A DNA stretch of 64,000 nucleotides. Origin: a plasmid. How positions within the stretch are numbered: the first letter of the stretch is position 1; the number at the start of each line of letters is the position of its first letter. A program made the position numbers and the translations under genes. This document shows, piece by piece, positions 51,350 through 52,390 of the stretch. Location: NCBI RefSeq assembly GCF_058153355.1, contig NZ_JBLWLY010000002.1. The stretch is one strand, 5' to 3'. Under the pieces are notes generated by a model. The model made no database searches. It was given only the letters and a program-made list of their open reading frames with translations, and was not told where the DNA came from.

Positions 51350-52238
51350 TTACGCATGCACCATTGCTTTCACCAATGCAAACTGAGGTTCATCCACCTT
51401 GTTCACTTTCAGATTCGGGAAATATTGCTTTATGTGAGGGTAAATAAGCTCGGCTCCCCCGCCTGTGAGGTAGATTCGGTTCATTCCTGAGAATGTTGAA
51501 ATTTCCTGCCTGATGCTTTCTGCCAGAGATTTCACCTCACTGTCTATTACATGAGTAATATTTTTTATTTCAGCCACATCATTTATTAATGTCTGGAGAT
51601 ATTCATTATCATGCCTGTTTTTTATTAACTCATCAGCAATAAAATAATTGCAGGGTGTGGAGGCTTTTGTTAGTGCATTCATGACGGTATGAGTTATGCG
51701 GGATGTCCCGATTTCTGAATTGCCACGGATTTCAGAAATGCCTTCAAATGCACCGAGAATTAAACCACAATCCAGAGTGGTTCCTCCAAGATCGATAATC
51801 AGGCTGCGTTCAAGTTTGTTTACTTTATCTTTTTTTAGTGATTCAAATGCAGCCGGCAAAGATTCAGGCATTACATTAACTTTTTTAATTTTAAATGTTT
51901 CCCCTTTATTCAGAGATATCTCACGGAGAACATTTGCCTTTTTTCTTTCTATTCTTTCTTCATTTGGTTGATTGTCATTATCAAAGAATTCGGTTACAGG
52001 TAATGTTACTGTCAGTTCTACATCCTGTGGCTGAAGGCCGGATGTCAGCAGTGCTGCCCAAATCATAGGTGTATTTTTTTCCATCCACGACGTAATTGTA
52101 AACTTTGCCGGCATTAAACAGTCCCGGGTTCCAGCCTTCTTTAAAGCTGTTTCCTGACAGACTGGTTCTTACCTCGCCATCTTCAAGCCAGGCCAGTTTT
52201 ACGTTAGTTGAACCATCATCGCATGATACTTTTAGCAT
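51350..52238 (-). pseudogene. stbA: Actin-like partition ATPase ParM/StbA, apparently disrupted by a frame-changing lesion near 52040..52060
   Basis: N-terminal part (MLKVSCDDGSTNVKLAW..YTYDLGS) is in one frame, the remainder (..ALLTSGLQPQDVELTVTLPVTEF..IIDLGGTTLD..) in another; the two ORFs overlap. Confidence 0.7.
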
Positions 52239-52244
52239 TCTTTT

Positions 52245-52390
52245 TGCCTCGTTTTGAGTTTGTGTTTGTCTCAAATTGAGCATCCTTTATGTCGATGCAT
52301 CTTTTTGAGTTTTTGTTATTTCTTATTGTGACTCAATTTGAGTTCTTGTTGGTTTCTCATTTTGCGTCACAAACTGAGACGGAAACTACT
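52245..52390 (-). promoter_or_regulatory. Putative parC-like centromere/promoter region upstream of parM
   Basis: Clustered TTTGAG / CTCAAA-type short repeats (e.g. CTCAAATTGAG, ACTCAATTTGAG, ACAAACTGAG). Confidence 0.3.

Follow-up and report, generated by a model that had tools for sequence, protein, structure and literature searches.

A type II ParMRC partition cassette on a pINV-type virulence plasmid, very probably pseudogenised by three repeat-mediated deletions

The DNA analysed here, a 64,000-nucleotide stretch referred to below as the window, represents part of a pINV-type virulence plasmid with the mxi-spa genes, icsA and an IncFII replicon, and its minus strand carries a partition locus that has lost small pieces of all its components. 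We regard this locus with high confidence as a type II ParMRC cassette of the StbAB / pB171-ParR lineage that was pseudogenised by three independent repeat-mediated deletions, one in each component. The deletions, which measure 63, 71 and 4 bp, became visible in an alignment of the window with two intact and annotated references, the locus of the E. coli IncK2/Z plasmid CP056818 (97.7% identical) and that of the S. flexneri pINV NZ_CP026099 (96.4% identical), and are present relative to both of them. The initial annotation had proposed such a comparison and expected a broken parM; the parM deletion was indeed seen against the S. flexneri pINV, but the same alignment also revealed the 63-bp lesion in parC and the 4-bp lesion in parR, both of which had been missed. 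Its view that the partition system is defective is borne out by the broken parM and gains from the lesions in parR and parC, so far as function can be predicted from the DNA. The elements of the locus are the following:

50915..50956 (-), hairpin with a U-rich tract behind it, following immediately on the parR stop (RNA fold -17.7 kcal/mol, z = -6.07)
50959..51318 (-), parR remainder in the native frame, open only from an internal GTG that is codon 13 of the 131-aa protein
51276..51350 (-), parR from its native start, with the ATG overlapping the parM stop (TAATG); the shifted frame stops after 24 codons
51350..52054 (-), 3' part of parM, open in the native frame for about residues 86-319 up to its own stop at 51350
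51981..52238 (-), parM 5' fragment from the native ATG at 52238, with codons 1-64 in the native frame, then 21 out-of-frame codons and a stop
52046..52054 (-), retained copy of the 9-bp direct repeat GCACTGCTG (coding strand) at the junction of the 71-bp deletion
52239..52385 (-), parC centromere/promoter remnant, with five iteron-like 11-mers left as opposed to seven in the intact locus
52327..52328 (-), junction of the 63-bp parC deletion, upstream of parM (columns 124-186 of alignment A1)

A gene for an actin-like ATPase homologous to ParM/StbA is present at the locus, as indicated by Pfam matches on both of its fragments. Two overlapping minus-strand ORFs in different frames had already been described in the initial annotation, and they were found exactly at the positions given there. 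The first, 51981..52283 (-), encodes 100 aa and ends with KYTYDLGSTADIRPSATGCRTDSNITCNRIL before its stop, the mechanical call starting upstream of the native start at ATG 52283; the N-terminal parM piece corresponds to positions 1-66 of the 158 positions of Pfam StbA_N (E = 5.9e-25). The second, 51350..52114 (-), encodes 254 aa, contains both ..ALLTSGL.. and ..IIDLGGTTLD.. and is opened by a fortuitous out-of-frame ATG; its exact product (P0001) carries StbA_N, ParM_N and MreB-like_C, and NCBIfam profiles gave only below-cutoff matches to the fragments of the locus. The stop expected in the N-terminal frame was confirmed, but it does not follow directly on ..DLGSTA, as the out-of-frame codons listed above come first. 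The phosphate-1 motif DDGSTN lies within the native-frame codons of the 5' fragment and the phosphate-2 motif IIDLGGTTLD within the 3' fragment; with the two motifs in different frames, a single ParM chain of ~320 aa containing both is absent. The aspartate of the second motif is D173 of StbA and D170 of R1 ParM, and its substitution abolishes function (PMC6519299).

The frame change results from the 71-bp deletion (junction 52054/52055; columns 461-531 of alignment A1, window against the two intact loci), which removes 23 2/3 codons (roughly residues 65-88 in a protein of 319 aa) and, since 71 = 3 × 23 + 2, causes a frameshift after codon 64. The loss of ~23 residues agrees well with the small, frame-changing internal deletion of about 20 residues suggested before. 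In the reference loci, the deleted segment opens with GCACTGCTG and a second GCACTGCTG follows after the segment, of which the window keeps one copy. Apart from the deletion, parM differs from the closest intact gene, that of locus L001, in only six codons, four of them synonymous, and contains no further stops. The intact orthologue of the window ParM matches the R1 ParM structures with an E-value of 1.3e-80.

Directly downstream of parM, a homologue of the ParR adaptor gene is present, the native frame of which is broken. The assumption that parR looks intact therefore does not hold: a deletion of 4 bp (AAAG) in codons 10-11 (junction 51328/51329; columns 1258-1261 of alignment A1), located in the A-rich tandem tract CCGAAAAAAAGAAAGAAAG, shifts the frame after codon 10. 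Translation from the native ATG now yields MESSDPKKRKLWHTCTRHFIRRIT, which consists of MESSDPKKRK and the out-of-frame LWHTCTRHFIRRIT, and then stops. Started from the internal GTG, the remainder has 119 aa and is missing the first 12 residues, that is, the basic tail at the N-terminus and the first part of the ribbon-helix-helix strand; it covers positions 5-72 of the 72 positions of Pfam Plasmid_stab_B (E = 6.6e-26). Within the ribbon-helix-helix domain of ParR, it is the N-terminal strand that reads the DNA (PMC2099191). Among solved structures, only that of ParR (StbB) from EPEC plasmid pB171 (2JD3) matches the present ParR family; the intact orthologue aligns with it from residue 4 (E = 4e-19), and the conserved N-terminus KRKK-x-x-x-YLHP in this alignment is the very segment hit by the frameshift in the window. 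pB171 itself is a different plasmid, on which the type II locus adjoins a type I locus (PMC6519299). Deletion aside, parR shows three codon differences from an intact relative and no additional stops.

The hairpin behind parR is probably the terminator of the par operon. It is retained, the sole change being a 1-bp length difference in the A-run that lies after the parR stop and before the hairpin. A pattern scan for terminators remained blank at this position, as the loop of 10-12 nt is too long for the pattern, but the hairpin is evident from folding.

Upstream of parM, the remaining iteron-like 11-mers of the CTCAAAnnGAG type are found at 52248-52258, 52270-52280, 52299-52309, 52332-52342 and 52356-52366. 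In the intact locus L001, the seven iteron-like 11-mers are of the CTCAAAAnGAG type and the promoter is embedded among them. The 63 bp missing from the window correspond to exactly one iteron period, the start-to-start spacing of the repeat copies (families D1 and D2) being 63 bp, and the deletion is bounded by two near-identical 16-bp iteron copies, ACTCAAAAyGAGTCAC. It takes away two iteron positions together with the -35 hexamer and most of the -10 hexamer of TTGACA-16-CATAAT, which was identified by the promoter scan with 11 of 12 consensus matches (L001 1662-1689) and is the only consensus sigma-70 promoter of the intact operon. In the window, the scan of both strands of 52150-52550 gave no promoter-like site, with the reservation that a consensus search could miss a weak or non-sigma-70 promoter. 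An iteron array with an embedded operon promoter is thus no longer found upstream of parM.

Since lesions of this kind may also arise during sequencing or assembly, it is important to evaluate whether the gene could be intact in the organism. The initial annotation had named a sequencing error in the T-rich run as an alternative, and homopolymer runs do lie near the lesions, namely an A7 run within parM and the A-rich tract near the parR start, while repeats are present at all three deletion sites, where a repeat collapse might be imagined. However, the window does not differ from the two intact references in the length of the A7/T7 run at 52074-52080, the parM lesion comprises 71 bp and not the 1-2 bp of an indel error, and the flanking repeats of 9 and 16 bp are too short for a collapse during assembly. 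In addition, all deletions are reproduced without gaps in contigs from three independent datasets of different sequencing runs:

Logan contig of SRR31441161, 6693 bp, 100% identical and gap-free, window 50770-57462
Logan contig of SRR8656992, 1635 bp, 100% identical and gap-free, window 50789-52423
NCBI AAXEGZ010000111.1 (GCA_015332025.1, E. coli), 8146 bp, 99.96% identical with three mismatches and no gaps, window 49334-57479

This reproduction indicates that the allele is heritable and no sequencing artefact, even though the three datasets could be closely related isolates of one clone, and we consider an artefact, whether an indel error in the T-run or a collapsed repeat, to be extremely improbable. 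The exact 254-aa and 119-aa products are likewise on record in public assemblies, the latter annotated as a plasmid stabilization protein in one NCBI assembly (EGO8354959.1).

The region as such is present in 360-370 PLSDB records and in about 300 complete RefSeq E. coli genomes. By megablast, 367 PLSDB records cover at least 80% of window 50900-52450, and the matches listed consist of three pieces spanning about 1690 bp as opposed to 1551 bp in the window. Queries spanning the junctions, run against PLSDB and complete RefSeq E. coli, found the deletions in none of the matches listed; the full-length matches among them are all split and keep both segments, of 71 bp and of 63 bp. In parC, a few of the weaker matches from these searches are single partial pieces, which we attribute to the internal 63-bp repeat. 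The hundreds of full-length relatives, together with the alignment of the full-length form to R1 ParM, which runs through the deleted stretch, show the deletions to be the derived state, and judging from these sequence collections they are apparently lineage-specific. As the coding sequence has otherwise hardly changed, the inactivation is recent. Beside parC, a divergent DUF1281 gene (52545-53516) is intact, with a mechanical ORF of 323 aa and gene calls of 300-308 aa on the public contigs that match the window, so that the decay is confined to the par cassette.

Comparison with known systems places the locus closest to the StbAB type. S. flexneri pINV StbAB (pWR100 family) has the same gene order, parC, parM/stbA and parR/stbB, shares the flanking DUF1281 gene and is 96.3-96.4% identical to the window at the nucleotide level over the shared sequence; the host replicons are both pINV-type virulence plasmids. 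Nevertheless, the par sequence of the window is slightly closer to the loci of ordinary E. coli plasmids (97.7%) than to those of Shigella pINV. StbAB of S. flexneri is an active ParMR-type system that stabilises a test vector (McVicker et al., PMC6519299) and is intact, in contrast to the window copy with its three deletions. Deletion of stbAB leaves the S. flexneri pINV stable because ParAB and the toxin-antitoxin systems compensate (PMC6519299). With R1 ParMRC, the locus has the architecture in common, i.e., an iteron centromere around the promoter, an actin-like ATPase and a ribbon-helix-helix adaptor, and R1 ParM (PDB 1MWM and others) aligns with the intact orthologue over residues 4-315. 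The relationship is distant, with published identities of about 42% for ParM and 23% for ParR (PMC6519299), and R1 parC differs from that of the present family in iteron sequence and spacing; the copy in the window is, moreover, predicted to be non-functional.

Losses of stbAB have been described several times for invasion plasmids. The S. sonnei pINV is without stbAB (PMC6519299), in agreement with our BLAST search, which found no trace of the par locus in S. sonnei pSS_046, and stbAB is missing from 9 S. flexneri pINVs, where it is described as frequently hit by rearrangements (PMC9455713). The outcome resembles that in the window, as none of these plasmids would have a working type II partition system, but in S. 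sonnei and the 9 S. flexneri pINVs the locus is wholly gone via rearrangement, whereas in the window it stays in place with three small deletions. The window was also considered as an intermediate of the stbAB loss in S. sonnei; this was rejected, since pSS_046 has neither the locus nor its flanks and its replicon is only 94.9% identical. A separate case of decay within the same par family is E. coli plasmid CP041438.1 (L007, 2400-3060), whose parR has likewise lost its frame in the A-rich tract and is annotated as a protein of 119 aa, starting at the internal GTG from which the remainder in the window is also open. It represents an independent event, since the parR deletion there is 1 bp long and parM is 5'-truncated by a rearrangement and begins at about residue 139. 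This second hit in the same tract supports the parR A-run as a deletion hot spot. Entries of 119-aa ParR proteins were also considered as proof of a natural GTG start, which was rejected, as the locus behind the traceable entry P0022 has a truncated parM and, in the same tract, a frameshift of its own.

The par locus lies on a plasmid of composite character. Window 1-12706 is 99.2% identical to the mxi-spa region of S. sonnei pSS_046 and window 24162-35626 is 99.4-99.5% identical to its virA-icsA region. The replicon region (42772-44757), which contains the IncFII RepA gene at 43029-43898, is only 94.9% identical to pSS_046, the segment with par and the leading region has no counterpart there and is at most 94-97% identical to the plasmids in PLSDB, and coverage of window 40000-64000 by a single PLSDB record does not exceed about 44%. 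The plasmid is therefore a mosaic, in which pINV virulence modules sit on a different backbone of the F-like type, and as such it is absent from the collections searched. A back-up system of the type I ParABS kind was not found within the 64-kb window: the Walker motif KGGxxK[ST] of ParA does not occur in any of its six reading frames, and tblastn with ParA and ParB of pSS_046 against the window gave no match.

Several further features were observed in the vicinity. Immediately downstream of the IncFII replicon, at 44873-45471, there are genes for a Gp49-like (DUF891, HigB-type) toxin and an HTH_3 antitoxin; at the equivalent position, pSS_046 has a RelE/ParE-type pair instead. A direct repeat of 839 bp occurs at 45883-46721 and 49049-49887, the two copies being 98.0% identical with 17 mismatches and no gaps. 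Each copy contains a partial CAAX-protease fragment and a complete pemI-pemK pair, and together they flank an IS21 element at about 46979-48948. Their divergence of 2% suggests that two different F-like backbones were joined rather than that a simple duplication took place. Between the second pemK copy and the par terminator lies an AT-rich segment of 963 bp (49953-50915; 35.6% GC as opposed to 46.6% for the window), which is missing from plasmid pMRE600-2, where pemK abuts parR, and which holds an ORF of 118 aa (50185..50541, minus strand) without a significant Pfam or NCBIfam match. Farther along, an ORF for a group II intron reverse transcriptase/maturase (RVT_1 and GIIM) adjoins an IS66 transposase split into two ORFs (62157-62840 and 63053-63535), these elements spanning 60598-61830 and 62157-63535. 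More copies of IS110, IS66 and IS21 crowd the regions of 40.7-42.4 kb and 56.4-59.5 kb.

Taken together, the most probable course of events is that each component was disabled by its own deletion. In parC, the loss of one iteron period (63 bp) removed the only consensus promoter of the operon and left five of the seven iterons; in parM, the 71-bp deletion between the 9-bp repeats placed the nucleotide-binding halves of the actin fold in separate frames; and in parR, the loss of one AAAG unit shifted the frame and took away the N-terminus of the DNA-binding ribbon-helix-helix domain. Direct or tandem repeats at all three deletions are the signature of slipped-strand mispairing or short-homology recombination, from which we infer that the deletions arose by one of these processes. 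As read from the sequence, the cassette would be transcriptionally silent and make no functional motor or adaptor. The plasmid may then be kept by other means, for which the toxin-antitoxin modules beside the replicon, i.e., the two pemIK copies and the Gp49/HTH higBA-like pair, are candidates, and, by analogy with other pINVs, P1-type ParAB is probably located elsewhere on the plasmid.

A reading that accepts the deletions but credits the remains with a residual function would assign to the 119-aa ParR and the five iterons a role in incompatibility or as a DNA-binding regulator or repressor, or would have the two ParM halves complement each other. It could draw on the iterons that are partly kept and on the parR remainder, which is open, matches Plasmid_stab_B from profile position 5 and is annotated as a protein in one NCBI assembly. 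Yet the promoter is gone, the native translational coupling (TAATG) now leads into the wrong frame, and the GTG start drops the basic tail and the beginning of the DNA-reading N-terminal strand (PMC2099191; 2JD3 alignment). The ParM halves are without ~23 residues and the 3' half is also without its native start, having only the fortuitous out-of-frame ATG, while the other traceable 119-aa ParR entry (P0022) comes from a locus in which parM is truncated as well. We therefore consider a residual function very improbable, if not quite as improbable as an artefact.

Less easily dismissed, though still unlikely in our judgement, is a selected rather than neutral inactivation, in which the cassette was knocked out because it imposed a cost or because it disturbed a further partition system carried by the plasmid. 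In one version, the parR frameshift derepressed parM, ParM being costly without autoregulation by ParR, and the deletions of the promoter and in parM were then selected. Selection would parallel the stbAB loss in S. sonnei and some S. flexneri pINVs, which is recurrent among pINV lineages, and would fit the lesion of its own in each of three components whose coding sequence is otherwise almost unchanged. It is also in line with the destabilisation of a test plasmid at 21 °C by stbAB and parAB in tandem (PMC6519299) and with the separately decayed locus of CP041438.1, in which a 5'-truncated parM is accompanied by a 1-bp deletion in the same parR A-run. On the other hand, each deletion coincides with direct or tandem repeats, and such repeats are mutational hot spots, so that relaxed selection after the first hit is enough to explain them, and the window contains no ParAB with which the cassette could interfere. 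More doubtful still is the broader proposition that invasion plasmids lost stbAB convergently and under selection as a step in their evolution, with loss of the whole locus in S. sonnei, rearrangement in several S. flexneri and a rapid triple knockout here. If it were true, the driver would be the harm from a second partition system or from unregulated ParM on a plasmid with ParAB and toxin-antitoxin modules.

We thus retain the pseudogenisation of the cassette by three repeat-mediated deletions as the best explanation. As the loss of stbAB on related plasmids is already published, the locus in the window is one more, ordinary case, which is distinguished by the fact that the pseudogene remains in place and the manner of its inactivation can still be read. 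For annotation, this means that the label of pseudogene fragment, and not that of protein, is appropriate for the two parM ORFs and the 119-aa ‘ParR’, that other 119-aa ‘ParR’ entries in the databases may be pseudogene remnants, and that the plasmid should be scored as being without a working type II partition system. The case also points to deletion hot spots at two sites, the A-rich start of parR and the parC iterons, and it adds a natural example to the published view that StbAB is dispensable on the pINV-type plasmids of Shigella and EIEC.
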